From Psammoneis japonica (taxonomy: Eukaryota), in contig QPGO01000003.1 of the NCBI GenBank assembly GCA_008632985.1, positions 1-64,000 of the forward strand: a DNA stretch of 64,000 nt, given 5' to 3'. How positions within the stretch are numbered: position 1 is the stretch's first letter; every line of letters begins with the position of its first letter. This document shows positions 1-53,700 of this stretch, one piece after another. The position numbers were made by a program, and so were the translations under genes. Under the pieces are notes generated by a model. The model did no database searches and was not told where the DNA came from. It saw only the letters and a list, made by a program, of their open reading frames with translations.

Positions 1-221
1 CCTGGTTTTTTAGCAGAGTGTGTCCGCACGCACTGGTGCATTGTGCAACGGGCCTGTTTTTTGGTGAGTGTGGCGAGAAGGGGACAAAAAAGGACGACGG
101 GCCAACAAAAGGCAAAAAGCAGTGACAGACACGCAAGCAATCTGGCAATGTTCAAAGCTGCCACTGCGGTCGTTGCAACAAATGCAGTGCTTTCAGAGCA
201 AAAAATTGTCGCCGAATCAGT

Positions 222-413
222 TCAAGCTCTCTTGTTGCACTGGAATGGGTGACAAAAAGGAGCTTTGATGCAATGATCCGAGGCAGCGCCGTTCTCAGAT
301 TTCAGGAACACCCACGGCCAGCACGGTGCAAGCCGACACCCATTCTGAGGACATTGTGTGAATGCAGAGGCACTGGAACAGTGTTCGTCATGATGGTGCT
401 TTCTGGCTTGGGA
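222..413 (+). pseudogene. Truncated partial copy of the P-loop NTPase gene, cut inside Walker A by a MITE end
   Basis: GTVFVMMVLSGLG (about 367-413) matches GAVFVVMAPSGLGKT at about 762-810. The sequence switches to the MITE terminus at 414. Confidence 0.6.
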
Positions 414-545
414 GACACATTCCAGGTCTAGTTGGGACCTCCCACTGCTGAGCTGTGACATCGACAGTTTTTTGAATCGCATCGCATGTCACGCGCACAC
501 ATTTCTACGTGATTTTGGCAAAATTTTGTGTCATTTTATAGCACA
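414..545. mobile_element. Eroded left-end fragment of the GAC...GTC MITE family
   Basis: gacacattccaggtctagttgggacctc...ctgtgaca...acatttctacgtg aligns with the left end of the element at 46752. Confidence 0.75.
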
Positions 546-643
546 ATTGTCAGGCGATCCATTCAACAACTTTTGACATTTTTTTCTTCTACAAGAATGG
601 CGTGGGGCATGCACATTGTCCAAAGCTTCAAGTGTGAACAGGG

Positions 644-1530
644 ATGCATGCACTGCAAACTTGGCCATTCATTTTGTGTCAAAGACAAACATGTCCATTG
701 ACCAGATTACGAACTGCAGAGCTCACATGCAGAATTCTGCAGGGCAAATGTCACAAAAAGAGAGGCTCTGGAGCAGTGTTCGTTGTGATGGCACCTTCTG
801 GCTTGGGAAAAACAACAGCTGCCAAGCAGTTTTTCCATCAGTTTGAGCAACGAACACAAGGCGTTGCAATTTGCTTGCAAGTTTCATCAATCATGGAGCC
901 TCATGTTTGCCCAATGCTTTTGGCCTTGGGCCTGAATCCTGCCAACCCGCCAAAGGGTTGGCTCAAATGCTGCATCAATTGTCTCCACAATGCAGGCAAT
1001 GACAAGCCAGATCAGCAAACCTGTTTGGTGCTCGACGATTTTGGTGGGACTGGGGAAGATGCAGAACTCATCATGGCACTCAAAAGCCAGGCACAAAATG
1101 CGAACACGCTGTGATCATTGCACTTGCCAGAGCCAAGGAAGACACAGATTTTTGCTGTCCCAAAATGATTTGGTGTCCACAATTCCCTTGTCAAATGCCT
1201 GCCCAGACTGTCAAAATCTGTTTCCGAACAGTGAATGGGCAAGCATGCACTCGGACACTCTGATGCACAAAATGTCAGCAAGACTTCAGCCACGCTTTGT
1301 CAAGGAATTCACAAGAGATCAAATTGAAAATGCCATCGATCAACATGTTGGAAGCCCCGCACCACAGCAGATGGACCAATTGGATCCTCCATCTGTGTGG
1401 CATGTGCTGGAAGCAGTTCTTTTGTCGCCCGCCAAACCCAGCTGGAATGTTGATGCAGCAGCCACTTTGTCAGGGGAGGGACCACTGGCAGAGAGTGGTG
1501 GTGGTTGTGCTCAGTGCATTGTTGTTTGGC
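644..1530 (+). pseudogene. Decayed P-loop NTPase (AAA-like) gene
   Basis: Walker A APSGLGKTT and Walker B LVLDD. It continues after a frameshift near 1110 and has no Tyr codons. Confidence 0.6.
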
Positions 1531-2799
1531 CGTGCACCTTTGGGTTGCAAGCACAGTTCAAAGGCCAGAGCCTGCAGATGAGCCAATGGCAACCACAGCT
1601 CCGCCACCTGCAGATGAGCTCTGACCATGCCCAAAAATTCAATGGCCACCAGTCAAACCACACCCACCGACATTGCCAACCCACAAGAGCCAACCACAAT
1701 CACAAAACAACAAAGTGCCATCTGAACATCCCACTGGCATGGGCGCACCACACACCATTGTCACAGCTGAGCCAACCATCACCACAATCACAGAAGGGCT
1801 GCCAACTCTTTTGCCAGCTGAAGAAACCAAAACATCAACTCCTGCTGTCACAGGAGCACAAGCACCAATCCTCAGCAACACCATCCATGGCACCAGCACC
1901 CTCTGCTGTGGATGGACAGCCTCTCATCATCATGTTGCCAGTGAGAGACACCCTGCTGGCAGTTGAGGAAGCCCAACCATGGAGCCAGAAGAGCCAGACA
2001 ATGGCACAAATCTGCCAATTGTGGCGCCAATGACACAAGCTCCTCCAGCCACTGCAGAAGAGCCAACAATGCAAGCTCTGGCCACTGCAGAGCCAAGAAC
2101 ATCACAAGCTCTGATTGCCATTGATGCAGGTCACACAAACCCATGTGAAGATGGCCAGAAAAAGCTGGCATGCTGCATCAAGTGCAGGGTGACACTGGGC
2201 AGTTTCCTCCATTGCCCGCTTGCCCTTGAGGCTTGAAACAAAAGCTCCGTCATTGTTCGTGGTGCACCAGGACTTCTTCAGCCAGCACAAGAGTGCTGCC
2301 ATGTCCACAGAAGTGTTTTCAGTGCACTGCCCACCTGCCAAACAGAAACTCAACACACCAAAAAACTCTGCTGAAGCAGAGCTGGTTCTTGGGATGGATG
2401 GCAGCATGCCGCCAGTGGTTTGGATCAGAAAGTTTCTGGAAAGGCTCACAGTCACTGACACAATGAAGTTTGCTGGGACAACTGGAGCGCAACACTTCTC
2501 AAGTGCAACAGCCATGCCTCCAGTGGGAGGAGAACACATCGTGTGGACATCTGCTGATGCTGCTGGTTTGTCATGGACCAAGAGTCAAAAAAGAAGACCC
2601 TTCTGAGGAGATGGTTGCTGATTTTTTTGCCAAGAAGCCCCTGTGCAGCAGCTTGTTGAAAAGGTTTGTGTGTTGGGCCTCTAGGATGGGGGGGAAGGAC
2701 CCCAAGCTCTCTGTGGTGGTGTGCTGGAACCCAGGCTCATGCCAGCACAGTGCAAAGCGCAGACTGTGTTGAAGACATGAGGCCTTGACAGCCACACCA

Positions 2800-3094
2800 G
2801 CCACACTCCAGCTCTGGCTGGGACCTCACACTGCTGTGCTGAGACATGAGAGAGCTTTTGTGACATGTGCCACCTCATACACACACTTCTGTGCAAGATC
2901 TTTTTTTGCAAATTTGTCCCATGCTGCCCCCTGTTTTGTGGAGGAGTGAGTTTGTGCATTTCGCAAAATTGCCTCTTTTTCTGTTGGCGATTGTTGGCAT
3001 GTTCGTCATTCTCAATTGTTTTGCTGCAGAGCTCACATGAAGCATTCTGTGGACCCATTGTCACATGGAGCCCTGTCCAGTGCCAGAGCATGCC
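2800..3094. mobile_element. Eroded MITE copy (about 295 bp) with 4-bp target-site duplication ACCA
   Basis: Both ends align to the termini of 46752-47145, and it shares the core ttcgcaaaattgcctctttttctgttggcgat. ACCA lies at 2796-2799 and 3095-3098. Confidence 0.8.
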
Positions 3095-5798
3095 ACCACA
3101 GCATCAAAAGATCTTTTTTCTTGGAAGAAGGAGAAGAAAGGGAGGGGGGGGAGAAGATCCAGAGGATCTTCTTGCTGTTGCAAGGAGGAAACCACAAGCT
3201 GACAATGGCGGACCATCTTTGACAAATGCCCTTCTTCAGCATGTCCCGTTGTTGCATCGATGCAGCCCTGGTGTGGCAAGCACAGAAGCTGCTCCTTGCT
3301 GTTTGTTTCACAGCTTTGTTTGTTTCACAGCTTTGGTGGACAAAAAGCACCCCACCAGCGCAGTCCAGCCAGCACATGTGCATGTTTTGCCAAGTGGAGG
3401 AATTTGGCAAAGAGTCTCTTGTTTGGTTTTTCACCAGGCAAGAAGAATGACAATCAACAGCATTGTTGTTGTTGTTGTTGTTGTGACTGCAACCCCACAC
3501 AGTCCATTCGAAACCACGAGCGAGCGATCGAGCGAGCGAGCCGGTGGTCCCACCAAGTTCGTACGTCTACCGTCTACCGTTCACCATCCCTTGCACGTAC
3601 GCATCACGCACTTAGTTATTCGCCCATGGCGCTTGCTTGTTTGCCGTTCCATGTAGAAGACTCTGAAAGTGCTCTCTGCTGTTGCAATTGGTGTAAAGTC
3701 ACTTGATAGGTTTAAACTGTGGCTGGAGAGGATCATCTTCTGTAGAAGACTCTGACTAAAGAATAAAGAACACACCATGATGACAAACCAAGAAACAAAA
3801 CGCCAGACAACGACTCTAAACGGGGCTCCTCCCTTTTGCCGTTTAAAAATGTACGGAGAACACAAGCGAGCAGTCTCAGCTGTGGCCATGTCACCTCGAA
3901 ACGACAAGGAACATCCTCTCGTTGCCTCTGCGTCTGCCGATGGCACTGTCAAGATTTGGGATCTCAGTGATGGCAGCGGTGGTGGCAGCACTGTTGTCGG
4001 TTCTTTGGACAATAATGGCGACAATGTGCAAGCAGCCAATTCACAACTGGGAACCTCATTGCTTCCTTCACTGGTCCTGATGGGTCACTCGCGAGGTGTC
4101 AATGATGTGGCATGGTCGAAAACTGGAGATTATGTGGCTACAGCATCCGATGACAAGACGCTAAGGTTGTGGGATGTAAACACCGGAGAGGCTCTTGTTG
4201 AGTTTCGGGGGCATTTGAACTTTGTCTTTTGTACGAAATTCAATGCAGCCTTTAGCAACAATTTATTGGTAAGCGGAGGATTTGATGAGACTGTCAAACT
4301 ATGGGATGTTCGAACGGGTGATTGTGTATCGACTCTTCCGGCCCATTCCGATCCAGTCACGGGCGTTGACTTTAATCGCAAAATTGCCTCTTTTTCTGTT
4401 GGCGATTGTTGGCATGTTGTTCGTCATTCTCAATTGTTTTGCTGCAGAGCTCACATGAAGCATTCTGTGGACCCATTGTCACATGGAGCCCTGTCCAGTG
4501 CCAGAGCATGCCACCACAGCATCAAAAGATCTTTTTTCTTGGAAGAAGGAGAAGAAAGGGAGGGGGGGGGAGAAGATCCAGAGGATCTTCTTGCTGTTGC
4601 AAGGAGGAAACCACAAGCTGACAATGGCGGACCATCTTTGACAAATGCCCTTCTTCAGCATGTCCCGTTGTTGCATCGATGCAGCCCTGGTGTGGCAAGC
4701 ACAGAAGCTGCTCCTTGCTGTTTGTTTCACAGCTTTGTTTGTTTCACAGCTTTGGTGGACAAAAAGCACCCCACCAGCGCAGTCCAGCCAGCACATGTGC
4801 ATGTTTTGCCAAGTGGAGGAATTTGGCAAAGAGTCTCTTGTTTGGTTTTTCACCAGGCAAGAAGAATGACAATCAACAGCATTGTTGTTGTTGTTGTTGT
4901 TGTGACTGCAACCCCACACAGTCCATTCGAAACCACGAGCGAGCGATCGAGCGAGCGAGCCGGTGGTCCCACCAAGTTCGTACGTCTACCGTCTACCGTT
5001 CACCATCCCTTGCACGTACGCATCACGCACTTCGTTATTCGCCCATGGCGCTTGCTTGTTTGCCGTTCCATATAGAAGACTCTGAAAGTGCTCTCTACTG
5101 TTGCAATTGGTGTAAAGTCACTTGATAGGTTTAAACTGTGGCTGGAGAGGATCATCTTCTGTAGAAGACTCTGACTAAAGAATAAAGAACACACCATGAT
5201 GACAAACCAAGAAACAAAACGCCAGACAACGACTCTAAACGGGGCTCCTCCCTTTTGCCGTTTAAAAATGTACGGAGAACACAAGCGAGCAGTCTCAGCT
5301 GTGGCCATGTCACCTCGAAACGACAAGGAACATCCTCTCGTTGCCTCTGCGTCTGCCGATGGCACTGTCAAGATTTGGGATCTCAGTGATGGTAGCGGTG
5401 GTGGCAGCACTATTATCGGTTCTTTGGATAATAATAATAATAATATGCAAGCAGCCAATTCACAACTGGGAACCTCATTGCTTCCTTCACTGGTCCTGAT
5501 GGGTCACTCGCGAGGTATCAATGATGTGGCATGGTCGAAAACTGGAGATTATGTGGCTACAGCATCCGATGACAAGACGCTAAGGTTGTGGGATGTAAAT
5601 ACCGGAGAGGCTCTTGTTGAGTTTCGGGGGCATTTGAACTTTGTCTTTTGTACGAAATTCAATGCAGCCTTTAGCAACAATTTATTGGTAAGCGGAGGAT
5701 TTGATGAGACTGTCAAACTATGGGATGTTCGAACGGGTGATTGTGTATCGACTCTTCCGGCCCATTCCGATCCAGTCACGGGCGTTGACTTTAATCGC
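2961..5798 (+). repeat. Tandem duplication, two copies of about 1.42 kb (2961-4375 and 4376-5794), with TCGC microhomology
   Basis: Near-identical copies. TCGC occurs at 2961, 4376 and 5795. Confidence 0.95.
3777..4379 (+). pseudogene. WDR5: 3'-truncated duplicate of WDR5
   Basis: Same N-terminal WD40 repeats as the gene at 5196, ending at VDFNR at the duplication junction. Confidence 0.85.
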
Positions 5799-6411
5799 GA
5801 CGGAAGTTGCGTGGTGAGTGGATCACACGATGGCCTTATACGGATATGGGACACCGCCACGGGAGAATGCCTGAAAACAATCTATGCCATGGGAATCCAC
5901 CCGTTTCCTCGGTCAAGTACTCTCCGAATGGCAAGTACGTGCTAGCCGGAACACTCGATTCAAAATGCCGTCTGTGGCACATGGCGTCCAAGGAACACCA
6001 ATCTACCGACAAGACGTTGGTTGGTGCGTCTTCGTCCAATCGTGGTGGCGGTGGCAAGTGCACGCGCATCTACTCTTCTCCGGATCATGTCAATTCCAAG
6101 TACTGTATTGCCAGTGATTTTTGCAATTCTCCGTATCGCAACTGCGTCGTGACGGGATCCGAGCGCGGTTCTATCGTTCTCTATGACATTCAAAGCCAAA
6201 AAGTTCATCAAGTTTTGGAGGGGGGACACTCGGATGCGGTGTTGGCGGTTGCGTCGCATCAAAACAAGAGTTTATTGCTTCGGGTGGCATGACACAAGAC
6301 AAAACTGTGCAATTCTGGAAACCAAATCGTGAGCAACAGCAAGAACCGGGGCATGAAGAACAAAAAGAAGGGCCTGCTAGTGATAGCAACAAGAGACCAA
6401 AGTTACAATAG
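5196..6411 (+). CDS. WDR5: WD40-repeat protein WDR5 (COMPASS subunit); apparent frameshifts near 5890 and 6270
   Basis: Motifs GINDVAWS, ASDDKTLRLWD, LPAHSDPVTGVDFNRDG, IRIWDTATGECLKT, NPPVSSVKYSPNGKY and IASGGMTQDKTVQFW. Stop TAG at 6409-6411. Confidence 0.9.
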
Positions 6412-20031: not shown

Positions 20032-20440
20032 TATGTGTTCTCTGGAGTGCGCCGTAGTTAATAGCCTATTCTCTCTACCGGTATTAAAGACACAATGAGT
20101 TTCTTTGATACTATTACACAGGTAGCGGTAATGTTACATGAATACCTGGCAATCATTTCTCTCAGAAGAGAATCTCAAGAGAGCATAATAGCGAAATCGA
20201 CAATCAGCAACAACGCAACAACAAACGACAACGCACCTCGCACCCGCGCAAAAACACAAAAATAAAAAATTCAAATGATTTGGAAAGCACAATAGCTCAA
20301 ACAAGATCAAACTACCGAAGAACTGCGCTCTCGCTTGTTATTTCTGCGCTGCCTTCTGTCCAATGACGCTTTTGTGACCTGTTGTTTGTTCAATGACCTC
20401 TTTGTGACTCCCACTCATCCTATGATGTCCTTCTACGTAC

Positions 20441-21620
20441 GTTTTCGGCAGTCACAAGGCTCATGTCAAGAAACAAGAGGCATTCAACACGACGAGACAT
20501 GAGACACCGCCTGCCACTTCCTGCCGTCACTGTTGTGCGACTGCAAAAAAAACATGATCTGCCGTCTCCAATTTTGCCGAAATGGGGAAGAACCACACCG
20601 ACCAAATTGTCACTCCAAAAAAGGGGCACTGCAATGAAGAGCCCAGCATGAGCAGGACGATGCCGAGAATCCGAGGATGGATGATGAGAAATGTGAGCAG
20701 GAAGCGACTTGCGAAGCAAGCCGCCCAGCCAACGGGTCATCAAGAATGACCATCGTCAACAGCAAACCAACAAGCCCTTTTGGGACAAGTGTTCGTGAAC
20801 ATGATGACAACGAAAAGCAGCAAGAAGAGCAAAAAGAGGTGTCGAAGAAGAAGAAGCTCACCAAGACCATCAGCAAATGACTTCGATGCAGCAGATTCAA
20901 AAGTCGTGGATCGCAAAAGGTCACAAAGGCTTGAAATGAACAGAGAGTCAGCCAAACAAAGAAGAAGGAAACAGCGAAGGTCAGTCGCTGACCTGCAAGA
21001 AAGCAATTTGAAGCTCGAGTCTGAAAGCCGCCTCCTTCGAAGACAAAAACAGGAGCTGGCTGCTCAGTTGGCAAAAGCACAAAAAGCAGAGCAACGAGGT
21101 GCTGCACCCAGTGTGGCTGTGAGTCGACCTGAAGCTGGGGCCCTTGTGGACTCGTTCCCCTCACTGCCCGACTCAACTCAAAAGTCTGTTGCTGCTGCTC
21201 TCCGGACCAGAGATCGCCGGTGGCTTTTGTCGGTGATGCCACATCCAGAGAGTTGGGAGGACTTCTTGCAGCTGGGAACACTGGCTTGCACCATCCAGAA
21301 AGACTGCCTTCAGTGTCATTGACGAGAAATGCACTGTTGAGAGCGCCCCTTCCCGCCTCACCTCGAGCTGCACGTCTTTTTTCTGGGACACGCCCTGACA
21401 CTGCATCTGCCGAAGCAGTCGCATCGCTGCAAGAAGCTGCAAAGATGCGTCTTCTTCTTGAAGACCAAGCGCGACGGCAGCGTCAACGAGAGCTCTCTTC
21501 TTCTTTGGGCAACCCTCTGGGATTGATGGACAGGCATCGAATGAAAACGAGAGAGCTTCTTCGTGGATGCCAGGAGCATTCTCCAACGAGAAAGAAGGTG
21601 AGTGCATTGAGCATGATGCA
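20441..21620. other. TpA-free domain B (CpG retained)
   Basis: No TA seen in about 1180 bp while CG stays frequent. Confidence 0.95.
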
Positions 21621-22400
21621 TTAATGGTTTTGTGATTGTCCTCTGGTGTGCTTCAAATGATGAAATGTGCATGGTGATTTCGTTTCTAACTTTGTCTCTC
21701 ACGTTCGTCATTTGTTTTTGCTCATGCGATCTTCTTTGTTGGAAGATCGTGTGATTGAGGCCATTCTTCAGGAAAGGAAGAAAACGGCTTCTCCTACTTG
21801 TTCGAAGAGGGGCATCATCCGTCGCCTACTTCTTCGAGACGTACGACGAGTGTCTAGAATGATAACCTTGAAGAAATCTGTCAGCCACAAGGTCAAGGAT
21901 CTCTTGATGAGGGAGAATCCCCAGAAGACATCCTCCTGAAGAAGCAGGAGGAAGCTCGTTTGATTGAGGCAATTCTTCGGGAACGGCAAACAATGCCCAC
22001 TTCTTCTCAGCCATCGCCTGCTTCCTTGAGACGTAATACGAGTAGTCGGAATGATGACCCTGAAGAAATCCGACAGAGAGAAGGTGGAGAATCTCTCGAG
22101 GAGGGGGAAGAATCCCCGGAAGAAATTCTCCGTAAAAAACAGCAGGAAGCTCGTTTGATTGAGACAATTCTTTGGGAAAGACAAATAAAGATGGCGATTA
22201 CTCGTTGTTCACAGCAGCCGTCACCTACGTCTTCTAGACCTACGACCAGTGTGCAGGATGATGGTCATGAAGGGATCCTTCGAAAACAGCAGCAGCAGGG
22301 ATCTCTCAAAGAGGGAGAAACTGAGGCAGATAGAGGCTACTGAGGCAACAGCGGGAAGCTCGAAAGATGAAAGCCATTCGTCTTGAATGAGCACCATCGG
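20677..22400 (+). CDS. bZIP transcription factor, possibly pseudogenised; probable intron at about 21598-21745; repeated C-terminal exon
   Basis: KRSQRLEMNRESAKQRRRKQ followed by heptad leucines. GTGAGT donor and CTAAC branch site. The ARLIEAIL.ER unit repeats about every 200 bp. Confidence 0.7.
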
Positions 22401-26020: not shown

Positions 26021-29000
26021 TTACTTTCCTATAGAGCAAGTACAAATGGTGTCTTTCCATTGATCGCTGCACTTGACTGGCCCTCTGCTCGTACAAGTTG
26101 CAACGTCACCTGCGTTGCCTGCTGCCGAGATACAATATCCGCCTTGATTCCTGCAAAAGGCATCGCAGCTGTCACCGTTCAGTTGGACAAAAACGGTACA
26201 CTCCATTTTGCTCTTATCTTCGGAACAAAGGTGTATGCCCCCCTCGTATCCAGTGTTACACAATGATGACGGTTTGAATGACTTCACTGGGCACGAATTG
26301 CAAGTCCTAGGGCAAGCCGCGTAGCCCGTCAGAGTGACCCCCTCAGCATTCTTGCCCGTTACCCGGCAAGAGGATGGCTTAGTCTCCAGGTATTTGCAGT
26401 CCTTTCGAACACGTGTAAAGCTCCATTTTTCGTGACGTAATATTTACCGTGCCAATCTTGGTCGTCGTGACAATCAAGGATTTCAGACGGTCCAATCGCT
26501 GGAGCCGTTGTTGCTATTGAGCTTCGGAGGTTTCCTGGAGACACAGTTGGCGGATCTCCAAGTGAACAGGTGCATATGTTGTCTATCCTTTCAAGATCAC
26601 AGGTTGATGGTCCTCTGCTCGTACAAGTCGCAACATCACCAGCATTTTCTTGTGCGGAAATGCAATATCCGCCTTGTTTCGCGCAAAAGCTATCGCATGT
26701 CTCACCATTCAACATGGCGTAAACGGTGCATTCCATTTTGCTTTCATCTTCGGCGCAAAGGTGTATGCCATTCTTGTGTCCAGCGTTGCACAAATTGACG
26801 GTTTGAACGACGTCACTGGGCACGAATTGCATGCTCTGGGACAAGCCGCGTAGCCCGTCTGAGTGACCCCTTCCGCATTCGGGCCCGAAATCAAGCAAGA
26901 GGATGGATTGGACACCAGGTATTCGCAATTCTTTCGCATGACGTATAGAAGTCCGTTCTTTGTGAAGTAGTAATTTCCCACCCAATCTTTGTTGTTGCTA
27001 CATTCAAGCTCCTTCAGAGCTGTGAGTGCATTTGTTGGAGCAACCGTTTTTGGCTTTTTCGGAGCAGGCGACGGCGAATCAGTTGGTAGCGACGTAGGGA
27101 GGTTCGTTGGTGGTGTAGCGGCAGGCGGTAGCAGCTTAAGCGCCTCCGTTGTTGCAGGAGATGGTGAGTTTGTCGGCCTAAGCGATGGTGCCTTTGTCGG
27201 CGCAAGCGTTGGCGGCGTGCTAGGTTGGTTTGTCGGCACTGGCGTTGGATTAGTTGTCGGTTCAGAGGTAGGTTTCGCTGTGGGAGGATTTGTCGGCACT
27301 TGCGTTGGTTTATTCGTTGGTTTCAAAGTAGGCCCTTCTGTTGGTCTATCGGTTGGGGCGTGCGTAGGTGTCCACGTCGGGAGTTGAGTTGGTGACGTTG
27401 TAGCGGTGTCAACGTAGGAGTCAACGTCGGCGCAGGCGTCAGTGACTTAGATGGTGTCAATGTCGGGTGGTCTGTAGGTGCCCTAGTGAATGGCGCTGAC
27501 GCTTCGGTCGGCATCAGAGAAGGCTGAAATGTTGGAGAGTCAGCAACATCTGATGGTACCTCCGTCTCTTCCGAGAGCCTCGAGAGGCTGCATTTTCCAC
27601 ACGAGGCGGGACAGCCATCGAAGGCTGATACAGAGTTGTTCTCCGCGTCAAGCCCAACAAGTTTGCACCTTGCATCAGGGCTCTTAGCAACAAACTTGCA
27701 CTTTTTCGTTGATCCATTCTTCGCGAAGACCCAATTACTATCGTCACTGCATTCTAATCCATCTTTCTCTGTGTTGTGAGACGTATTTTCACCGGTGAAT
27801 GTAGTAGGTCGTGCTGTTGGCGCTCGAGACGATGGAGCGTATGTCGGGTACGTATTGAGGGGCAACGTTGCTGCCCGTAATGTTGGTGCTGAGGTTTCCA
27901 ACACATCACTTATTGGGCAAGAGCCACACGTGAGTGGACACGCCTCGTATCCAGAAGCATCATTGCCAAACGCATTTTTTCCCATTAGCTTGCATCGTGA
28001 AACAGATTTGGATTTCAAATATCTGCAGGGCTTTCGAACCCCGGATTTGGTAGTGAAGATCCAGAGCTTATCATCAGCACACCCACCCTCCAATGGACGA
28101 TACGGAGTAATCGTTTCCGAGATTTGATTCGTCTCGGAAACAGAAGATAGTGTGGTTGACGAAACCGTTGGCATCAAAGTCACGGGTGCAGCCGGAGCTT
28201 CTGCTTCTACCAGCGAAGAGGGAGACGAACCTTTCGTTTTTATACCAACCCTGACTTTTTCTATGGGTCCGAAATTTCCGCCAGCTTTCTCCAGTTGCCC
28301 GTCAAAGTAAAGCGAGTAGCCCCCATCTCCATACTCGCAACATATTCCATCGTTCTCGCTATCTCGAATGGTAAAGGTGTATTTATCAAGAGGCAAGCAG
28401 AGTCGCGTGATGTAGGTTTTCTCACTACGAAGCCCATTAGCAGATTCAATGACGTCGTTTTTGGAATTCGTTAATTCCCAAGACGTTTCCTCTCCCCATT
28501 CATCCGTCGTCAGATTGAGCATGAAGACCTTTTCATCACAAAGGAACTCGGTCGGTGAAGGTGTTGGAGGTTGGGTATAAAGAGGGTCCTGCTTACAACC
28601 ACCAAGCGCTCCGTCCGAAAGGGGATCTGGAGACTCATCACCGGCTGTGCATCCATCGCGTTTCAAAAGATCGTAGGCTTCCTTTGCTTGAACCATGCCA
28701 AATCCGGACTCGGTGTCACAACCTGATAGTCCTATGTCCTTGGCAGTTCGTATCAGTACGTTTCTGATTTGATGGTTCGTGCATTCTTCAAAATGTAACC
28801 ACAGCAGAGCAGCAATGCCGGCTACATAGGGCGTTGCCATGGAAGTGCCTTTTTAAAAGAGAAATTACGGAGAAAACAATGAGGTCCAGCTTTGAATACT
28901 GTTGAAATCAACTGGTTTATCTGCACTTACCACTCCAGCTATCGTAGCCGTAATGTGTCCCATCGACTTTCGGTACGGTTGATACAATGTCGATTCCAGG

Positions 29001-35151: not shown

Positions 35152-35391
35152 GGTGCTAGTAGTAGTATGTTTGTTTGTTTCGAGTATAGTAGAACGATTA
35201 GAAGACGAACAACAGTGTGTACAACAGCACCAACAAACAAAGAGCCTCTCTTGGTGCTGACGCTGTGAACTGAGATTTTCGATCTTTTTCCACCTGCTTC
35301 CGACAACGTACATTTCTACGTGCTTCTGGTTGTCGTTCCAAACGTGTGGTGGATTGATTCTTCTCTGTTTGACTCGAACGGGCGACCGACC

Positions 35392-35480
35392 GACAGTCAG
35401 ACAGACAGACAGTCAGACAGACAGTCAGACAGACAGTCAGACAGACAGTCAGTCAGACAGTCAGACAGACAGTCAGACAC
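35392..35480 (+). repeat. 12-bp microsatellite (CAGTCAGACAGA)n
   Basis: About 7 units, directly visible. Confidence 0.95.
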
Positions 35481-36646
35481 GCACACCGACCTGCCATGCA
35501 TTGCATGTGCGTGTTCTTCACATCATGACAACACACAAAAAAGGGGTGAGCCGCAGCAGAGGCCCTCTGATGCTGTGCAGGTTGTTTGTCTCCAAACAAG
35601 AAGCAAAAGTGCCCAAACACCTCCTCCTCCTCCTTCTCTTCTTTTGTTGCCAGAGACTCTGCTTTTTGCGTTGCTCTGTGGTGGTGTGGCCAACTCTCCC
35701 GCTTTGTTTTGCAAAAGAGCATGCACAGCCACACTTGTTTTGCAACAAGATTTTTTTTTGCTGGACACATGTTGTTTTTGGCAGGTGACTTGGTTTTTTT
35801 TCAGACACTGCCCCAAACTTTGAGTGCTGCTGGCGCTGCCACACACTGGTGCTTGGCTCTCTCTCTCTGCACAGCAGGTTCTCTTGCCTTCTTCTTGCAC
35901 ACCACCACACACACACACAGGGCAGCCCAAAACATGATCAAATTGACAATGCAGCAAGAAGCAACAACGTCAACAAGAAAATGTTCAGCACACATCACAC
36001 GCAGCAGCAGGTGGCAGCAAAGCGGCGCTTTTCTGAGATGGTGTGCGTGAATTTCACAATTGAGCATGTGCACATGGGGTGATGTTTGCACAACAAATGT
36101 TGTGTCCAAGCAGTGCACAAATGTGAAATGACAACATTGGCACTGTCATGTGTGTGATGGGATTTTGGTTTGAGGTGGGGAGCAATGCACCAGACTTGGT
36201 CAATCATGGGGGGGGGGGCTGTGTGTCAAAAAGAGCTGGTGTGTTGCAAGTTTGTGAGCCAAATTGTCAAAATGCTGTGTCACGAACAAGCCCCAAACAC
36301 ACACTGTGTTTGTGTGCCATCATGTGAGATGTCCCATGTCTGACTGGATGTTTGTGTCCCCAATCATGTTGGCCAGCTGCACAACTGGCATGCAAGAAGA
36401 CTGCGCTCAAAACTGAGTTGCAGCATGATGATGCAAAAATGTGCACACAGCTGAAATCCCATCAACACCCATTTTGTTGGAAGGAGCCACACCCCACACT
36501 GGACTTGGCAAAGAAAGTGATGGAAGATCAAGAAAGTTAAAGGAGACACACACTGGAGAGCGCCAGACATGATGGGATGAAAGGGTGGCACAGCACTTGC
36601 ACACAAGCCAAGAGGTGGCACAGTGCTTGCACAATCCACAATGCAG

Positions 36647-36661
36647 GGCAGCAGCAGCAGC

Positions 36662-36694
<33 letters not shown>
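36647..36694 (+). repeat. (CAG)n microsatellite with one CGG interruption
   Basis: Directly visible. Confidence 0.95.
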
Positions 36695-36695
<1 letters not shown>

Positions 36696-37386
36696 CCAAC
36701 CACAATGCCAAACACACAGAGCTTGTGAGGCAACAAACTGAGAACCGCAACAAGCAGTGGTCTTGGCAGCAACTTGCTTCTTTTGGAGAACAGGCCAACA
36801 TGGCCAATCAGAAACTTGTTGAGGAACAGAGTGCAGAGTTCTTGCTCATCAGCTGGCTTATGTGAAACTTGTGGCTCTAGATTTCCCCTAAGTCATTTTA
36901 TTTTCAGAAGATGTCCATAACGGCTTAAGGGCTTATCAGTGTGGACCCTCATGACTGGTTGAGTGACTGCAACATTGATTATTTAGTAACGCTTCAATTT
37001 TTATAATATTTCGTCGGACTCTCGACATCAGCTGTCCAAAGAAATTCTGTCTTCCAGTGAGGGCCTACCATAGTACACATAAGACGTGCGCACAGAAAAC
37101 AACATACGGGCTGATTGACAGACTGCTTCAGTAAGATTTCTACATATTATTCTTTGGACAGCCGCTGTCCAGAGTCTGCCCCCCCCCAGCGAGCATGGGT
37201 TTTTGTGCGGTCCGTGAGTCCGTGATTTTTTTGGGAATTGTCATGCAAAAAAATAGATACTGTAATGTCTAATGTCATCTTTTCGCGGTTAGTTCAAGGC
37301 TCAGTGCAAGGAATAAACCAATAAGCAAGGACACTCCCTCTGTGATACAACAACTCACTGCATGACACAATACTCAGAGTGCAGCC

Positions 37387-45005: not shown

Positions 45006-46629
45006 GGTGTTTACTTATTTCTCCTCTGCCTCTGTTGCAATAATTTTGGTTGAATCGATGTGAAGAGTTTGTTGGCGGCGGATCGAGAGCGAGGGTGGCG
45101 GAAGCTGAGAAATGAGTGAGTGCGAGAAACACTTTGATTTGGTGACTGGCACATAAAAAGATTAGATATAAGCCCAATGCCCGTGGACATTTTGGACGAC
45201 TTAGACATTCTACTCGCGTCATCCATCATCCTTGATCCGGAATGACTGTAAATCATTCAAAGTGTTTAGCATGCACCCATTTATTCAAGGATCTGCACTG
45301 TGCTTCATTCTGGGGCCAGACAAAATCTGCACCTGTCCTGGATGGAAATAAATCTCAATCAGTGCCCCATCTGTCTCTCCCCCTCTTTTCATCGCAGGTG
45401 TGTGCAGAGGACAGCACCGTGTCTCCCTGACTGGACGGTGCCAAGTTGAGGGCACGGGAGGTTTTTTTTCAAAGGTCGTGCAATTTGCCAAGTTCTCGCA
45501 AAATGGCCACAGTTCTGGCAGGCTCAACGAAAATGTGTGCTTTACAAAATTTGCACCTGGCAGCTTTGAAGGACATGTGCTCCACATGGTGGCGGCGCAA
45601 GTTGGGCGGTCTTTGAAGAGAGCCCCTCGATGCACTCACTCTTTGGTGCAACCCAGGCTGCTGGCATGGTCTTTGTGCATCCAATGTGCGCTGGTGCAGC
45701 AGAGAAAGGAGAGAGAAGACAGGTGGCATGCAAACTCAGATTTCTGCCCAGAAGAGCTGCAGATTTTGTCCAGCCCCCTTGTGGAGCACAACCACAGATC
45801 CTCAAATGGGGGGTGCAGATTTTCTGTGATGACCAGGGCGGCATGCAGCCACAAAGAGAGCAACAAATTGTTGGCAACAATGACACAATGGGTGAGCAGA
45901 GCAGTTGCTGCAATTTCTGAAAAAATGTCAAACTCTCTCATGGGCAGCTTCTTAGATGGCTCTCACACTCGCACACTTGGAAATGAGAAACGAGTGGTGT
46001 GCCATGTGCCCACACTGTTCCGGGCTGTCAACTGACAAATCGCACTGCAGCTGAAAGATCATTTTGTTGTTGACACACAGAAGAAGCTTGTTGTCATGGC
46101 ACACTTGCTTGCACATTGCCAGTGTGAATGATGGTTGGATGCACAGTTGCTCAACGTGCACATGCAACAGGTCATGAGAGCAGCGGTGCGATTGCCTCTC
46201 TGTGGCGCACATGCTGCTGGCAGCATCTGCAGTTTGCCAAAGAAGTCTGCAAACTGGGCCCATTTGGTTTGCAAAATGTGTTTGCAAACAGAGTGTTTGC
46301 AAGACACTGAAGTCTCCCAACTGGCTGCAAACAGCTTGCAAAGTGTCTGCAAACAAAAGAGCTCATCCAGTGGCTCGCAGCTCAAGCACACATGAGCCAC
46401 ATGTCAGACGTGTCTCTTGCCTGGCACCGCTGTCATCTTTTGATGTGTCTGAACATGTCTGCTCCATCGCATTGAAGAAGCACAACAACTTTCTCAGCAA
46501 TGACTTGAAACAGACTGGTGGGTGTGCCCCTTTTCACATGAAATGCGCAACCCAAGAAGAGGTGTTGGTCCTTTGGCTTTCAACTCATTTGCCCCAAGTG
46601 GAAGAAAACCTCAGTTGTGTGCATTGGTG

Positions 46630-48850
46630 TTGGAGCTTCATGGCTTGCCAGCTGGCACATGTCAAGTGTCGCCATCTCCTGGCTTGCTGCATGGCTTGCA
46701 AACATGTCAGCCTGATGCTGCCAGTTGTCATCGACATGTTGACCAGGTGCAGACGCGTTCCTGCTCTAGGTGGACCTCGTACTACTGAACTGTGACACAA
46801 TTATTTTTTATCATCCGTCGTATGTTTCGCACGTACATTTCTACGTGTTCTATTATAAAAAATTGTTCCACACTGCCTGTTTTGCGAAGCCAAAGGCTTT
46901 CTGTTATCTGCACTTATGTCAATAAAAATGCGCTGGGTATATTCTTTAATGTCTGAAGAACATACCCGCGCATGCTGTAAAGAATGTACTTCAAGTGTGG
47001 AGGAGGAGATACGTTCGCAAAATTGCCTCTTTTTCTGTTGGCGATCATTCATATGTGCATTGCTTAATAAATTTACTACAGAGCTCGCACGTAGAATTCT
47101 ACGGGCCCAATGTCACAAAAGTCCCACCTAGGACTGGAACCCGTCTGCAGAAGCTAAAAGGTGAGCACAAGACCAGCAACTCAACCCAAGTTGCGGAGCG
47201 TCAACTTGCCATGTTGTTCACAACTGTCAGTGCATCCTGTGCTGCAACTTTGTCTGTCCACCCTGCAACAACTGCCTCTTGTCCCAATGTTCCAACACAC
47301 ACTCCTTTGACAAGTTGTCAATCAATCGACCTTTTGCACATCAAGCACAGGAGGATGACACTTGGAAATCATGCCACCCAACACCATGCCAGCTGTTCCA
47401 TTGACTCTTGTGGTCCACATCATCTGACTCCACTGAAGAATGACTGCTGTCAGGACAATCCCTCCTTGTGTGTCTGACCTTGTTGCACTTCCAGCATGTG
47501 ATCTTCTTCTTGTCATTCTGCACAAAACTTGTGCCCTTGGGTCTCTTGTTGGTCGTGCACGTGTCAAACACCTGCAGCGGTGCTTCTTTGGCTGAGTTGG
47601 GGCACACATTGACCCCCAATGTGAGCTGGTGCCAACTCAGGTCCTTCAAGACATGGCAACACTCCTTGGCACCTTCCGCTGGCATTGCTGCTGATGACCA
47701 GCTCCTTTTTTTGCTCTGGGTGTCATCAACATCCTTGCCAAACCCATCTTCTTTCTTGGCGATTTCTTCTGGGATGATCCTGCCAGGGGATGCTTCCACC
47801 ATTTCAACCACACTGACAAACCAATCACAGCAGCATTGAAGTGCTTCTCTGTTGTCTTGATGAATGAGTGCCAACTGCTCCCAAGCCTTCATCGCCTGGA
47901 CACATGGGTTTGTTTGCTCATTTTTGCATCAAACAAAATTGACTTGAGAGTGCTCAGCAGTGCCACCATGTCCCACTCCTTTGTGACTCTCACAAGCTCT
48001 GCCACTCCTTCAAGCTTGTGACCAACAGCCTTTGCACATTGCCCCGCAATTGTGTCAAATGCCCTCACCTTCTGCACCTTGTGGATCACACTCTGCTTCA
48101 CACAGTGACCACATTTCTTGCCTCAGATCACCTTGTCCTTCTCCAATGCGGTGTCTTCTGTGATGGACAATCTGATTCTCCTGGCATGTGCTCCTGCCTT
48201 AGAGACAACAGCGCCTGCATTTTTGGCCTGAACATTCTTCTGACATGTTCAATGAGATCTTCCTCGTGGTTTCCATGCATCCATCTGCCTGTCTCGTCCC
48301 AACTCGGCAATGGTGTCATGCACCCAATCCTTCAAATCTTTCACACTTCCATGCCCAGCTGCAATCTGCCAACACAAGGTGTGCCTTTGGATTCCCACCA
48401 ACCTTCTGGTCTTTTTTTGGGTTCTCACGCACTTTCCAGGAGCCCTTGTCTCTGCAGGCTCCTCTCTCAACTTCTCTCAGCCCTTGTTCTGTTGACTCCT
48501 CTTGACTTCCCAGCCCTTGTTGAACAACAACACTCCTTTGAGCATCATGCCATGGCTTTTGGCTTCTGTGTTGGAGCTTCTTGGCTTGCCAGCTGGCACT
48601 CACATTTGGTCTCACTGTCTCCTGACTCACCGTGTGGCTTGCAAACACATCAGCTGATGCTGCCAGTTGTCATTGCAGCCATGTCAACTGGGTGCAGAAG
48701 CCAAAAAGTGAGCACAAGACCTGCAACTCAACCCGAGTTGCAAATGTAAACTTGCCACATTGTCCACAATCATCAGTGTGTCCTGCGCTGCAACTTTGTC
48801 TGTCTGTCCCATGAAAACTGCCTCTGACCCTGATGCTCCAACAACTGGGC
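46630..48850 (-). mobile_element. Decayed Ty1/copia-like retrotransposon remnant: gag region between two diverged direct repeats (46630-47300 excluding the MITE, and 48570-48850)
   Basis: Zinc knuckle CWKCNKVRHTRRDC, and gag-like segments IAGQC..KLE..DMVALL and LGVNVCP. The flanking direct repeats could be LTRs. Confidence 0.6.
46752..47145. mobile_element. Intact 394-bp non-autonomous TIR element (MITE) with 4-bp TSD TGCA
   Basis: Left end gacgcgttcctgctctaggtggac; right end reverse complement gacgggttccagtcctaggtgggac. TGCA at 46748-46751 and 47146-47149. The related repeat near 48690 shows the empty site. Confidence 0.9.
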
Positions 48851-50199
48851 AGGAAAAGTCCAAAAACAATGCAGGTGCAGCCACAGCTGCACATTCAAGG
48901 AGCACAGAGGAACAAAAAGCTGAGGCAGGATGTGGCGCTGATGAAAACTGATTGAGGTGCAATTGGCACTTCTTGCAGGCTTGAACTGGAAGAAGTTGAA
49001 GGCTGCATGACACACACACAACAGCAACAAAGTGGGGTCATCAGCTGTGGGACAAGAGCACCAGCAGCTCAGAGTCAGGAGGGTGGTTGAGGAGGGGGTT
49101 CTGTCAAGACTCCCACACAAAAGGAAGAGGCCTGGCTGCAGAGTGAAGACAGAGAATCAGCAGAAAAAGATTTTGGAGGTCTGTTCAAGAGGTGGGCAAA
49201 GAAGGAAACAGACTTGCAAAAAGTTTTTCCCCATGTGAGATTCTCCCCTGCAGAGCCAGCCCCCCATTCAAGATTTGACAAAATTTGTCTCAGGCAAGCC
49301 ATGTGTCAAAATCAAGAAAGAAGGCAGGAAACAAGTTGGTTTTGGCTTTCTTCTTACACACATGGAAGCCTGCCCTGCTCCAGGGGCAAAAATGTCATGC
49401 TCAATGCACAGAAAGCCTCACAAGTGCTGGTGCAGGTCATGATGCAGAAAACCACTTGTTGCAACAGATTGCAAAACACCCTTTTGTCCGATGATGAAGT
49501 CACCATGCTGGTCACACTTTGAGTGAATTGAGAGTTCATGGAACACATGAGGGAGCATCATCCAGTCTGTGGCACTGGCAGCAAAGTGCTGAAAAATCTG
49601 GTGCAGGAGCAGCACAGCACAAAAGACCAAACCCATTTGCAACAACAACCAGGAGCCTTGCTTTGCTCACTGCCTGCTTCCAAGGATCCATTTTCTTTTC
49701 CACCATCATGTCTGTTTCCTTGTGTTGACAAAATGGCAAAAAAGGGGCTAAAGTTGATGCCATTGTCCAGGCTGAGCTTTGCTTCTTCTTGCATCTTTGG
49801 GAGCTTGCTCATCAACAAATGTTTCATTGAGCACATTGCGAATCACTCATGCCAACATGTTGTTGAAAAAAATCCTTTGTGTCACATTCAAGAGCCTGCA
49901 TTCATGTGCTGGAACATCAAATTGTCTTTTGATTTGCGCATGAATGAGGCTGCAGGTTGCTCAAGGGAGAGCCAAGCTCTGGCTCTGCAGTGCCATTTGA
50001 CAATCAAGAATGACCAAGCCAGCCCTCAGTTTCAAACATGTGGGGGCACATGTGCACGAGGCCTTTCCATGATGTGTGCCCCTGCCAACATGTTTGAAAA
50101 TCATTGTGTTTTGTTGACTGTTCTTGAAAATGGTGCCAAAAGTTTGGGCCATGCATTTCATGCAAAAAATTCTTGGAAATGTGTGCCTGAGTCTAGAAC

Positions 50200-50730
50200 A
50201 AGCCACACTAGGAAAAATGCTGTGCTGGCATTTTTCCTGCCAAAGTTGTGGCAGCAAAAAGCAAGCAACACAAATCCAGCTGACTTGTGCAAACATTTTG
50301 GTGTGCAGCAGCATTTTATGGTGCAGTGTCAAGTTTTCAGATGTTGTGCTCAGCACTCCATTGAGCTGCACTGTGCATTGTGATGTGACTGAGAAATGAG
50401 GAGAAATGGTGCTGGCACATGACCTGCCAAAGTCATGGCAGCAAAGATGCAAATCTGACTGTCTTGCATTTCCATCAGCTCCAGAGGAGTGCAGCACTGA
50501 CTTTGGATGACACACTCAGCACTCCATTGAACCATGCCCCCCCTGCAATTTGGTTGAAAAATGCATGGAAAAGTGCAGTGTCAGCATTTTGCCTGCCAAA
50601 ACCATGTTGCCACAAAACACAAGCAGCACAAACTCAGCCATCTCATGCTTCTGTTGCTGCTGTGCACACAGCAGCTTTGGGGCACAGCACTGAGCTTTGG
50701 ATGCTGCACTTGGTGCTCTGTTCAGCATGT
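50200..50730 (+). repeat. Degenerate tandem repeat, about 3 units of 170-190 bp
   Basis: Recurring cctgccaaa and cagcactccattga segments. Confidence 0.5.
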
Positions 50731-53700
50731 TGCCATCTTGCCACAGCTTTGAAAAGCAGGGTTTGGATGAAATCTGATGAGAGCAGTGCATCATGATTTT
50801 TGAGAACCCAGGAATTGAGCCATTTGGATGAGCAGATTCTGATGAAAATGTGACATTCAAAATGATGGTGGACAGCACAGGACACACAAGCACTGTGGCC
50901 AGCCAACCAAAGCTTCAGTGTGTGCCTCAGGACACTTTGCTTGTCACCTCTTGCTTTTTGCCTTGCACATTTGAGAACCAAGAATCAAGCCCCAAACCTC
51001 GTCATTCTTTTTTTCAGCAAAGAAGCACTCATCTGTGCCACCACTGGCGAGCTTCATTTTTGCAACAAGAAGCTGTGCACACAACAAAATGTGATCTCAT
51101 CTTGTGACAACCAAAAGATGGTGGCAGATTGGGCCTGTGCTTTTCATTCACACATTTCTCATTTTGCAAATCATGATGGCTGGTGGGGAATCCATGGAGA
51201 GGGGGGACATGTGCGCGCTCCTTTCAGGGCAAGTCTCTTGCACTTCACACACTTGTTTGCAAGCTGTGGGTTTGCAGCACCAAAGCTGGTTCAATGGCAA
51301 ACACAACTGCTTTGCTGCTGCAACAAGAAACAGGTGTGTTTGCTGCTTTGCAGCTGACAAACTGTGCTTTGCAAAAATGGCTTGTGTTGGAAAAACCTTT
51401 GCAAAAAACCGCAAACCAAAACACGGTTGTGCAGCAAAATCCAGAGTCCACTGAGGAACACTCAAGGTTGTTGTCACAGATTCGACACCTCTCCAAGTTC
51501 ACAATGTGGTATGAAGTGCATTGCAAAGTCCATGGCAAAATCACACTGACGCACAAACAGTCCAAAGACAAACTGACACGCGAGTGAGCATCGTCATTGT
51601 TGGCGACCTCACTGCGACACACTTGCTCTCTTTTCTCTCTCTGACAAAAGAGTCCGCTCTCTCAACATGTCTCGTTCCAACCAAAGATGATGATGCTTCC
51701 ACTCAAACAACTGAGAAGCAAAGGCAGGCACCTTTTTTGACATGTAGCTGCCTGCCGAATCCCATGAACTGTCTGGCATCCTGCTGGGCATGATGCGCGC
51801 AGTGCGCGGTGACATGAGCGATTTTTCGCGCGCGCCGCAAACACAACAGACATACACAACATGATGATTTTTTTCAGAGCGACAATGATGGCTTGCGTCG
51901 CTTATTGCACCGTCGCCTTTGATTCTTTATAGTACAAGGTAACACACTCATAAGATTATATCTCTATTCGTTCATATGATGCATATGCGTTAGCTCTGTC
52001 TCGATAATTACCGTGAGACTTACAGAGACTGTTTCAATGCCGTGACGCGCTGTTGTTGCTGTTTTGATTTTTTGTTTTTACATGTGCTCCCGTCGATCCT
52101 CTCATAGTTTCTATTTGTCGCAATGTTGCATCATTGTTTCATAGGCGGCATGGAACAATGTCCATGTAAGCACCATTTCGGTTTTTCCCTTGTTGTTCTC
52201 GAGGTTGGCGTTGCGCAATGTAAAAGCCATCATGGACAACCACCTTATGTTTCACAGGCACTGAAATACGATAGAGCCCTTGTTGTCGTTCAGGACACGC
52301 ATGTACATGTTTGACAATCGGAGTCAAGATACTCAGAGTCTCAATTAAGCAAATCACTCTTGTCGTGGCTTGCGTTGTCGTCATTTGTAAAGACAGTACG
52401 TACGATCCTTTTCGCAGTCGCTGCGTCACCAAAGGGCGGGCATTGACGACTCGCAGACGGCTGCGGGATGTACACGGAAAGAATTGCAACATGTGTAAGG
52501 TGGCATAGTGCTGGGAAGGTACATTATTGTTTCCGCCGTTTTGTGGGCCTTGTATTGCTTATCCATATTCTTTTGCTCATTCGGGATGGATACCGTCTCC
52601 GTTTGGTTATATGTTATCAAACTCGATGGTAAAGGAGAAACAGTAGTTGTCCTACATTGGGCCCGGTATCTTCGCAGGGCGGACGTTGCCAGCAGAATGA
52701 GGTATTCAACATTTTCTCTGAGCGTATGATTATTTTGTGGTGGGACTATTACGACTGTTGGTTTCTGGGAAAGAAATGAAGTGTAGGATTGTTCAATGCT
52801 GCCGATACTACTGTACCTACGACGACGTGGACGAGTATATCAACCAAGAGAGAGAGTTAGTGGTTGATTGTTGGTGGCTCGCCATGTCCCTTTTTCATGC
52901 CCTATGGTGACATTATGGCTTGGGAACGAATATACGTACTCAACCAATGTCTGGGCGAGAAAAAGTAGAAAGAAGAAGGAAGGAAACTCGCCCGACTGTC
53001 GGTTTCGCTGGTCTTTCGAGAGGTTTTGTTGAAGGAGAAGAGTGTACGATTACAGATACGGTATGCAAAGGTTCTCGCTACATGAATATGCATACGCTAA
53101 CAAGAATGCTTCAATGTGGAATAATACCGGTGTATTATATATTGATCCGTCTTATGTAAGTACTCGTGGACGACCTGTGTATTGCAGGAACCTCACTATA
53201 GTAGTTGTACACTCACAAATGTTTCTCCATTGAATGGCAATAAGGATACTGCAGTCGCATCGGCTATTACGGGTTTCGTCCACAAGCCCTACAATATCGC
53301 AAGAGTGTGCAATTGCGTTACCCTATCTCGGATTTACGGCCAAAGACTTGCTGCGAAGAATACGCCCCCTCTTGCCCATACTCGCGAGAATGACACTTGC
53401 GCAAAAGCAATAAGCCGTGGTGGTACTTGATGGGTATGCTCGTAAACTATGCAGGTTTCGATGCCGGCATGGCATGTGATCATGAGGAGGTCTGGATAAT
53501 TCGCCAATGTCGATTATCAACCAAAGTGTCGATTGCTCCTTGCGACTGTTGCAAAGGTGATATCATTTTGTGAATGCCCCGTACGCTACGACATCCGTCG
53601 TACGTCAATAATGTGGGGCATCTTCCGTATGTAGCTTGGCAGCCTGCATCTGCAACTAGATATGTTGGGTTTCAACAATTGTACAAGGAGGATTCAATTG

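Follow-up and report, generated by a model that had tools for sequence, protein, structure and literature searches.

A probable DNA hypermutation footprint in a diatom: one-directional TpA transitions in one version of WDR5 and three TpA-depleted domains

The window analyzed here, a stretch of 64,000 nucleotides from the diatom Psammoneis japonica (GenBank assembly GCA_008632985.1, contig QPGO01000003.1, positions 1 to 64,000 of the forward strand), contains two head-to-tail versions of the 5' part of the gene for WDR5/SWD3, a COMPASS subunit. The versions differ almost entirely by transitions that point one way, with A/T in version 2 and G/C in version 1, and that fall at TpA dinucleotides. 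The same window holds three domains from which nearly every TpA is missing. We consider it probable, at about 0.6, that the WDR5 burst and the three TpA-erased domains form one footprint of a hypermutation process of the type described in Bigelowiella natans, and that the two versions are alleles placed in tandem by the assembly.

Two versions of WDR5 differ by transitions at TpA

The repeated unit is 1.42 kb long (2961-4375 versus 4376-5798; 1423 columns in the global alignment) and consists of about 650 bp of upstream sequence followed by the 5' region and the first 199 codons of a WD40 gene. Its parts are as follows.

2961..4375, plus strand: version 1 (copy 1), with the eroded 650 bp upstream, the WDR5 5' region and codons 1-199; carries the G/C letters taken as derived
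4376..5798, plus strand: version 2 (copy 2), the equivalent unit with the A/T letters taken as ancestral, running on into the remaining WDR5 gene
4376..4379, no strand: assembly junction with TCGC microhomology, where TTTAATCGC meets AAAATTGCC
3974..4026, no strand: cluster of 53 bp holding 10 of the 15 substitutions; of its 9 TpA, 8 are altered, and (AAT)5 has become AAT-AAT-GGC-GAC-AAT
5196..6411, plus strand: WDR5/SWD3 coding region of version 2, its frame shifted by two 1-nt deletions in G-runs (~5890 and ~6270)

Fifteen substitutions separate the versions, along with internal indels at two places (TGT at 4415-4417; a single G of the G-run at 4562, G8 versus G9). All but one of the substitutions are transitions (nine A/G and five T/C), and at each of these 14 sites the G or C is in version 1 and the A or T in version 2 (two-sided sign test, P = 1.2e-4); the remaining difference is a C/A at 3614. 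Thirteen of the 14 transitions lie within a TpA of version 2; with TpA accounting for 70 of the 411 A/T positions, 13 or more in 14 would arise by chance with P = 1.2e-9. The changes are concentrated in the 53-bp cluster, with 9 of 18 TpA adenines altered inside it versus 4 of 52 outside (Fisher test, 3e-4), and the first 650 bp of the unit show no substitution at all. Each version has 33 CpGs, and none of them has undergone a transition. A first-pass annotation of this DNA had listed these sites, and realignment returned every position and letter exactly, together with its counts of 14 of 15, 13 at TpA and ten in 53 bp and its statement that CpG transitions are absent. The pattern of TpA transitions between the versions is real and far from chance.

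Some details bear on how the changes arose. At the time of mutation, at most 12 of the 14 hits would have been at TpA: position 4018 stands in ApA, and one of the two changes at 4019/4020 (TA>CG) must have been made off TpA. A TAT context is seen in 9 of the 13 TpA hits as against 21 of all 70 TpA adenines, a comparison confounded by the (AAT)5 repeat. Along version 1, A>G and T>C alternate, forming 10 runs in 14 changes where 7.4 are expected. The changes are thus not strand-coordinated, unlike those of APOBEC kataegis or of a single edited RNA. The earlier proposal of processive action on both strands does not sit well with this alternation, and since opposite-strand changes segregate at replication, at least two rounds of hits are needed. 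Three of the 15 differences are upstream of the ATG (the C/A at 3614 and two A>G); in the coding region, version 1 has synonymous changes in the codons for Gly66, Asp78, and Asn135 and the replacements Ile73Val, Ile74Val, Asn81Gly, Asn82Asp, Met84Val, and Ile108Val.

To judge by its sequence, the gene is a diatom WDR5/SWD3 ortholog of the WD40 type, colinear with the aligned orthologs. In a protein search, 595 of 1452 candidates matched at E <= 0.001, the best being 63-67% identical and many being named as COMPASS component SWD3; the named sources of these matches are Cylindrotheca, Seminavis, Fistulifera, and Bacillariaceae, and the cluster of the top match includes a protein from Fragilaria crotonensis. 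These matches place the host among the pennate diatoms, and the protein collection contains no close relative of it. The reading frame breaks at 5880-5895, where ATGGGAAT is one base short relative to the orthologs, and again at 6262-6275, where AAGAGTTT stands and AAGGAGTTT is expected. These single-nucleotide G-run deletions look like homopolymer errors of long reads; otherwise they would make the gene a real pseudogene.

Three domains of the window have lost nearly every TpA

When the thresholds of the B. natans preprint (rhoTpA <=0.43 and rhoCpA+TpG >=1.52) were applied to the 64 one-kilobase windows, 12 passed both; they are TpA-depleted, CpA+TpG-enriched, and CpG-poor, and they fall into three clusters. 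Throughout the three domains, per-kb counts place CpA and TpG at 1.5-2.1 times expectation and CpG observed/expected at 0.02-0.6. The link drawn in the first-pass annotation between the WDR5 changes and domain-wide TpA erosion is upheld by these clusters and by the B. natans precedent. The domains and the elements recognized in and around them are listed here.

709..3561, no strand: domain 1, with 2 TpA in 2.85 kb; CpG-poor; reproduced by read-derived contigs (X1, see below)
35318..36858, no strand: domain 2, with 1 TpA in 1.5 kb; CpG-poor, CpA/TpG-rich, intergenic
45350..51744, no strand: domain 3, with ~10 TpA outside a 390-bp island; its minus strand has a weak CCHC knuckle of the gag type
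734..1526, plus strand: frameshifted pseudogene of a P-loop family of ~320 amino acids (tblastn matches at 734-1099 and 1149-1526)
225-419: second, partial copy of the P-loop pseudogene (tblastn)
2961..3108, plus strand: high-copy repeat element, X1 word depth ~28,000 versus ~55; related copies at 650-830 and 47014-47117
445-592: high-copy element, X1 word depth ~52,000 versus a base depth of ~55

These word depths mean that the elements at 445-592 and 2961-3108 are present in hundreds to a thousand genomic copies. The P-loop family was recovered by phmmer as 27 proteins at E <= 0.001, all of them from environmental assemblies (the best, P0121, at 7.9e-38 and 58% identity), and is linked to Pfam through a weak AAA_22 match. 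Among the 63 stop-to-stop open reading frames (ORFs) of the three domains, the Pfam scan found weak matches to AAA_22 (1.9e-4), zf-CCHC (8.4e-3), and eIF3g (2.8e-3) and no recognizable viral gene; the single solid match, Band_7, comes from a real gene bordering a domain. A homolog search among longer proteins with the gag-like ORF at 47344-47928 (minus strand) yielded 84 candidates, none at E <= 0.001. In terms of target class, the domains thus carry high-copy repeats, the P-loop pseudogene, and a weak CCHC knuckle, and the 53-bp cluster sits in a host gene.

The 390-bp island of domain 3 (46767-47155) has ~30 TpA and normal CpG and includes a copy of each of the high-copy elements that occur at 413-511 and 2961-3065; most probably it was inserted later and is yet to be eroded. 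The high-copy element at 2961-3108 starts ~5 bp or less from the left edge of the WDR5 repeat unit. Two further segments of about 1.2 kb each, 20439-21621 and 30445-31701, have 0 or 1 TpA, normal CpG, and little CpA/TpG excess, and both overlap with long ORFs that lack a Pfam match. Their lack of TpA is probably a coding or composition bias, unlike the hypermutation signature.

The two versions are most likely alleles of one locus

Logan contigs from three sequencing runs of one sample, which may be the source of the assembly itself, were aligned to positions 1-4440 of the window (X1 and X2 below are two of these runs). Each contig has one depth figure, contigs drop minor paths, and those listed leave 168-239, 452-775, 1689-1899, and 2989-3143 uncovered. 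An X1 contig with a depth of 33.8 matches the version 1 cluster at 3974-4026 exactly, with no other letter differing, and hence the ten changes are present in accurate reads. Over the shared segment 3144-3973, the X1 depth is 62.6, and the flanking contigs stand at 55.8, 54.2, 62.6, 59, and 55.7. The ratio of shared segment to flanks is therefore ~1.1, where a homozygous duplication predicts 2x and a heterozygous one 1.5x, and the version 1 branch has about half the depth. Single-copy depth combined with a half-depth version 1 branch points to two alleles of one locus. A 6-kb X1 contig that starts at 4027 and extends into the downstream gene (depth 51.3) and an X2 contig both have version 2 letters and pass 4379 into GACGGAAG..., that is, the remaining gene; among the contigs listed, none bridges 4376. 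The homopolymer-type indels represented by the two WDR5 G-run deletions also fit long reads assembled from a heterozygous diploid. The pair is most likely allelic and was set in tandem by the assembly, with no true duplication.

Assemblies of heterozygous genomes can contain false, haplotypic duplications, reportedly described by Rhie et al. in 2021. The WDR5 versions resemble them in that alleles appear as adjacent copies while read depth stays single-copy; they differ in that the join is gapless and precise, with 4 bp of microhomology, which is unusual for such artifacts. Accordingly, of the earlier statement that a tandem WDR5 duplication captures the process, the second half stands and the first half probably does not, as the depth speaks for two alleles; it is then as an allelic pair that the versions record the TpA process. 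The first-pass annotation had itself held that a lack of reads spanning the junction would recast the copies as alleles, and the listed contigs agree with that outcome, though they are contigs and not raw reads.

The sole X2 contig listed (3628-4379) is 1593 nt long, starts 149 nt upstream of the ATG, and extends 841 nt beyond 4379; it has all the version 2 letters plus a C>A at 3775. Its extent resembles that of a mature WDR5 mRNA, the kind of run not being on record. Exact-pattern scans of metagenome contigs with the version 1 cluster and with a shared 36-mer near the junction gave 0 matches in a collection without this organism.

The alternative of a true and recent tandem duplication, formed by microhomology-mediated joining and followed by TpA hypermutation of the truncated copy 1 alone, is unlikely, yet it has points in its favor. 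The assembly junction is clean and bears the TCGC microhomology, and the upstream 650 bp without any substitution suggest youth; moreover, unequal exchange between homologs could also set two alleles in tandem. Such a duplication exists in the assembly, as first annotated, but neither of its expected marks, a spanned junction and a depth of 1.5-2x, is found among the contigs listed. Domain 1 includes the first 650 bp of the unit, so an identical eroded segment, with 4 TpA, precedes each version. This count disagrees with the earlier claim that the changes are restricted to the copy beside the eroded domain, and it weighs against the duplication.

Ordinary divergence is an improbable source of the spectrum

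A second group of alternatives, namely, ordinary allelic divergence, a short tract converted from a diverged paralog, or a patch of error-prone repair (DNA polymerase eta, WA motif), with no dedicated hypermutation process, is improbable. The genome is indeed heterozygous: the X1 contigs differ from the window at 16 single bases and by 2 indels within 1-2988. Conversion or patch repair would fit the clustering, and the TA hits plus one AA hit would fit WA. However, transitions at TpA in one direction are not expected from conversion or drift, and the flanking differences have another spectrum, with 9 of the 16 being CpG transitions and only 1 a TA/TG difference (at 2683, where domain 1 has one of its two remaining TpA). 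Polymerase eta makes many transversions at A; were 55% of its changes taken to be transitions, 14 of 14 would have P = 2e-4. Two control pairs of paralogous segments in the window (27517-30031 versus 37421-39946 and 31760-33328 versus 41489-43092) likewise show ordinary spectra, with 81 and 86 transversions, and of their 197 and 184 clean differences, 22 and 14, respectively, are TA<->TG/CA, in both directions.

The ancestral state is TA

Because a difference between TA and CA/TG is symmetric, its direction has to come from outside evidence. Four lines agree in supporting TA as ancestral and TG/CA as derived in version 1. First, residue 108, the Ile of the GHSRG-I-ND blade motif (GIND), is Ile in 20 of 20 aligned diatom orthologs and Val in version 1. 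Second, version 2 has a perfect (AAT)5 at the place where version 1 reads AAT-AAT-GGC-GAC-AAT, and the reverse path, from GGCGAC to a perfect in-register AATAAT by five transitions, would need a 1-in-64 coincidence of purines and pyrimidines. Third, at the seven aligned Tyr positions of P0121 the P-loop pseudogene has His twice, Cys three times, Phe once, Asn once, and Tyr never; the altered positions include two conserved tyrosines, that of PY, kept in 10 of 10 homologs, and that of RYA, kept in 9 of the 9 that cover it. As TAY>CAY and TAY>TGY are TpA>CpA and TpA>TpG, the Tyr>His/Cys replacements give the direction of change in domain 1. Fourth, at 10 sites the less eroded repeat copy at 46751-47122 has TA against CA/TG in those at 413-511 and 2940-3070, with 0 sites in reverse; the same comparison for CG gives 7 versus 2. 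The polarity proposed in the first-pass annotation is borne out by all four lines, and the outgroup of WDR5 orthologs for which it had called sides with version 2: all 20 have its Ile and none the Val of version 1.

These results bear directly on a mechanism akin to fungal repeat-induced point mutation (RIP), whereby C>T at CpA (G>A at TpG) would have acted on version 2 and G/C would be ancestral. By itself, the TA<->CA/TG difference would permit this, version 1 reads CpA/TpG at 11-12 of the 14 sites, and RIP targets duplicated DNA. RIP is also similar in kind, as it degrades repeated or foreign DNA by context-specific transitions and leaves a dinucleotide signature. We nonetheless regard it as very improbable. 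The orthologous Ile and the perfect (AAT)5 of version 2 speak for the opposite direction. RIP makes TpA from CpA and so leaves target DNA enriched in TpA, whereas here TpA is destroyed: the 64-kb window has no TA-enriched domain (the maximum per-kb TA observed/expected is 0.86), and it does have TA-free domains, which the Tyr>His/Cys changes polarize the other way. RIP normally affects both copies; here, only one version is altered, and there is no evidence of duplication as a trigger.

Least credible of all is an artifact, in which base-calling or consensus errors at modified bases produced the G/C letters and the TA/CG-free domains. The homopolymer-type indels (the two WDR5 G-run deletions and the G8 versus G9 difference) do point to long-read data. 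However, the X1 contig with depth 33.8 has exactly the version 1 cluster, and X1 contigs at ~55x reproduce domain 1, so its TA/CG-free composition is no consensus artifact. Fungal RIP proper, APOBEC-like kataegis (C>T and strand-coordinated), and ADAR editing fixed via cDNA or by RNA-templated repair are rejected on direction, context, or strand alternation.

Other features of the window

The rest of the window is diatom gene space, with genes for a mitochondrial carrier, subtilases, PT-repeat proteins, proteins with HA (helicase-associated) domain repeats, and RING, UCH, and prohibitin proteins. The two control pairs form a large inverted segmental duplication that flanks domain 2 (87% identity for 27517-30031 versus 37421-39946 and 76% for 31760-33328 versus 41489-43092) and carries subtilase and PT-repeat or M64-like peptidase genes. 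On the minus strand, 53781-55580 is an ORF of 600 amino acids with seven HA domains encoded in 201-bp tandem repeats; it is TA-poor and CpG-normal.

Discussion

Adenine deaminases of the ADAR, ADAT2/3, and TadA types have an A>G outcome and prefer U or T 5' of the target adenine. The changes in WDR5 are alike in outcome and in 5' preference. These enzymes act on RNA, however, and changes fixed through retrocopies are strand-coordinated, whereas here genomic DNA including the promoter is affected and A>G and T>C alternate. In the explanation that we favor, one WDR5 allele would have taken a recent and local burst of TpA>TpG and TpA>CpA changes (A>G on either strand), and the same one-way process would have stripped nearly every TpA from three domains derived from transposable elements and pseudogenes, which lost their CpGs too. 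The chemistry may be deamination of adenine in DNA by an ADAT2/TadA-like deaminase; adenine deamination gives pure transitions, which fits the 14 of 14. A modification of thymine with mispairing, of the 5-hydroxymethyluracil type at TpA, may instead be at work and would look the same as adenine deamination. The targets would be silenced, CpG-methylated chromatin, as the shared borders of TpA and CpG loss suggest, and the host gene next to it would have been reached by an allele-specific spill-over. Within that gene, the TA-rich (AAT)5 could have become a hot spot by melting or forming hairpins that expose single strands, and the same 53 bp would have been hit in two or more rounds. The TAA>TGG and TA>CG changes would then reflect a relaxed context inside (AAT)5, where after a first hit the partner adenine is in CpA.

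Several observations weigh against this explanation. Exact joins with 4 bp of microhomology typify real rearrangements more than they do mis-joins, and the depth argument uses a single value for each contig, taken from one sample that may itself have supplied the assembly. The version 1 letters at 3614, 3653, 3678, 4098, and 4181 occur in no listed X1 or X2 contig; this is expected if bubbles caused by single-nucleotide polymorphisms were popped and is no proof of absence, and it leaves these five letters unconfirmed. Many TpA are untouched between the domain edge at 3561 and the 53-bp cluster, and with so many intact at 3562-3973, simple linear spreading from domain 1 does not fit. The outgroup polarizes only 1 of the 14 sites, and since the orthologs are at most 70% identical, synonymous and noncoding sites cannot be polarized with them. 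The altered target is a conserved host gene and not foreign DNA as in B. natans. Lastly, the B. natans preprint, so far as its available text goes, does not mention CpG co-depletion, so the decay of TpA and that of CpG may be independent.

The closest known system is that of the mutation-accumulation lines of B. natans. There, 231 of 302 nuclear single-nucleotide mutations fell in integrated giant-virus and virophage regions; of these, 230 were A>G or T>C, and the GC-biased ones were all at TpA; the rate was ~1000 times background, and the effect was confined to some of the lines (Mettrop et al., bioRxiv 10.64898/2026.01.13.699255). Long-term TpA depletion with CpA+TpG enrichment was seen in clusters of 1-kb windows, and the authors propose ADAT2-like deamination of DNA adenine as a defense against foreign DNA, their Discussion stating the U/T 5' preference of adenine deaminases (bioRxiv 10.64898/2026.01.13.699255). 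In the text of the preprint available to us, the word "diatom" does not occur, and CpG co-depletion is not reported (bioRxiv 10.64898/2026.01.13.699255).

As far as that text permits a comparison, the two cases share nearly exclusive A>G/T>C change on either strand, at TpA and confined to regions, with degraded, unannotatable targets. Where B. natans has almost exclusively A>G or T>C, here 14 of the 15 differences are of this kind; where it has all at TpA, here a version 2 TpA holds 13 of the 14 transitions, no more than 12 of the 14 having stood at TpA when hit; and its clusters of 1-kb windows have their counterpart in the three clusters made up by 12 of 64. The differences are equally plain in the available text. 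The host is a diatom, hence a stramenopile and not a chlorarachniophyte, and the domains are remnants of transposable elements and pseudogenes. TpA loss is nearly complete, with rho at 0.0-0.3 as against 0.45 in the giant-virus (nucleocytoplasmic large DNA virus) region of B. natans. The domains are CpG-poor as well, an allele of a conserved host gene is altered, and the diatom case is known from sequence alone.

Because a TpA-eroding process has this recent experimental precedent, the diatom case joins a known kind. Reports of TpA-directed hypermutation of invading DNA so far amount to one, the 2026 preprint on a chlorarachniophyte, as judged from its available text, and the literature searched contained no report of such hypermutation in diatoms. 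The window would thus present a just-described process in a new lineage, to which it adds near-complete erasure, co-depletion of CpG, and a hit on a conserved host gene. A wider claim, to which we give somewhat less than an even chance, is that diatoms run an active TpA-specific DNA hypermutation on CpG-methylated, silenced chromatin that spills allele-specifically into housekeeping genes and, as part of the same joint claim, runs to completion in erasing TpA from transposon-derived domains. The enzyme in such a system would probably be a DNA-acting adenine deaminase, at present a candidate only.

At the practical level, these findings caution that an apparent tandem duplication in a long-read assembly of a heterozygous genome can be two alleles. 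If the proposed explanation is true, a newly found defense would be present in a second major eukaryotic lineage and be tied to DNA methylation, and the WDR5 allele pair would be a dated snapshot of a hypermutation episode. The process would then be widespread in the stramenopile-alveolate-rhizarian (SAR) algae and able to finish, leaving TA-free kilobases; its coincidence with CpG decay suggests targeting through methylated heterochromatin, with collateral damage to a conserved chromatin gene. The window further gives a simple signature for scanning genomes, together with a polarized natural example for testing candidate deaminases.

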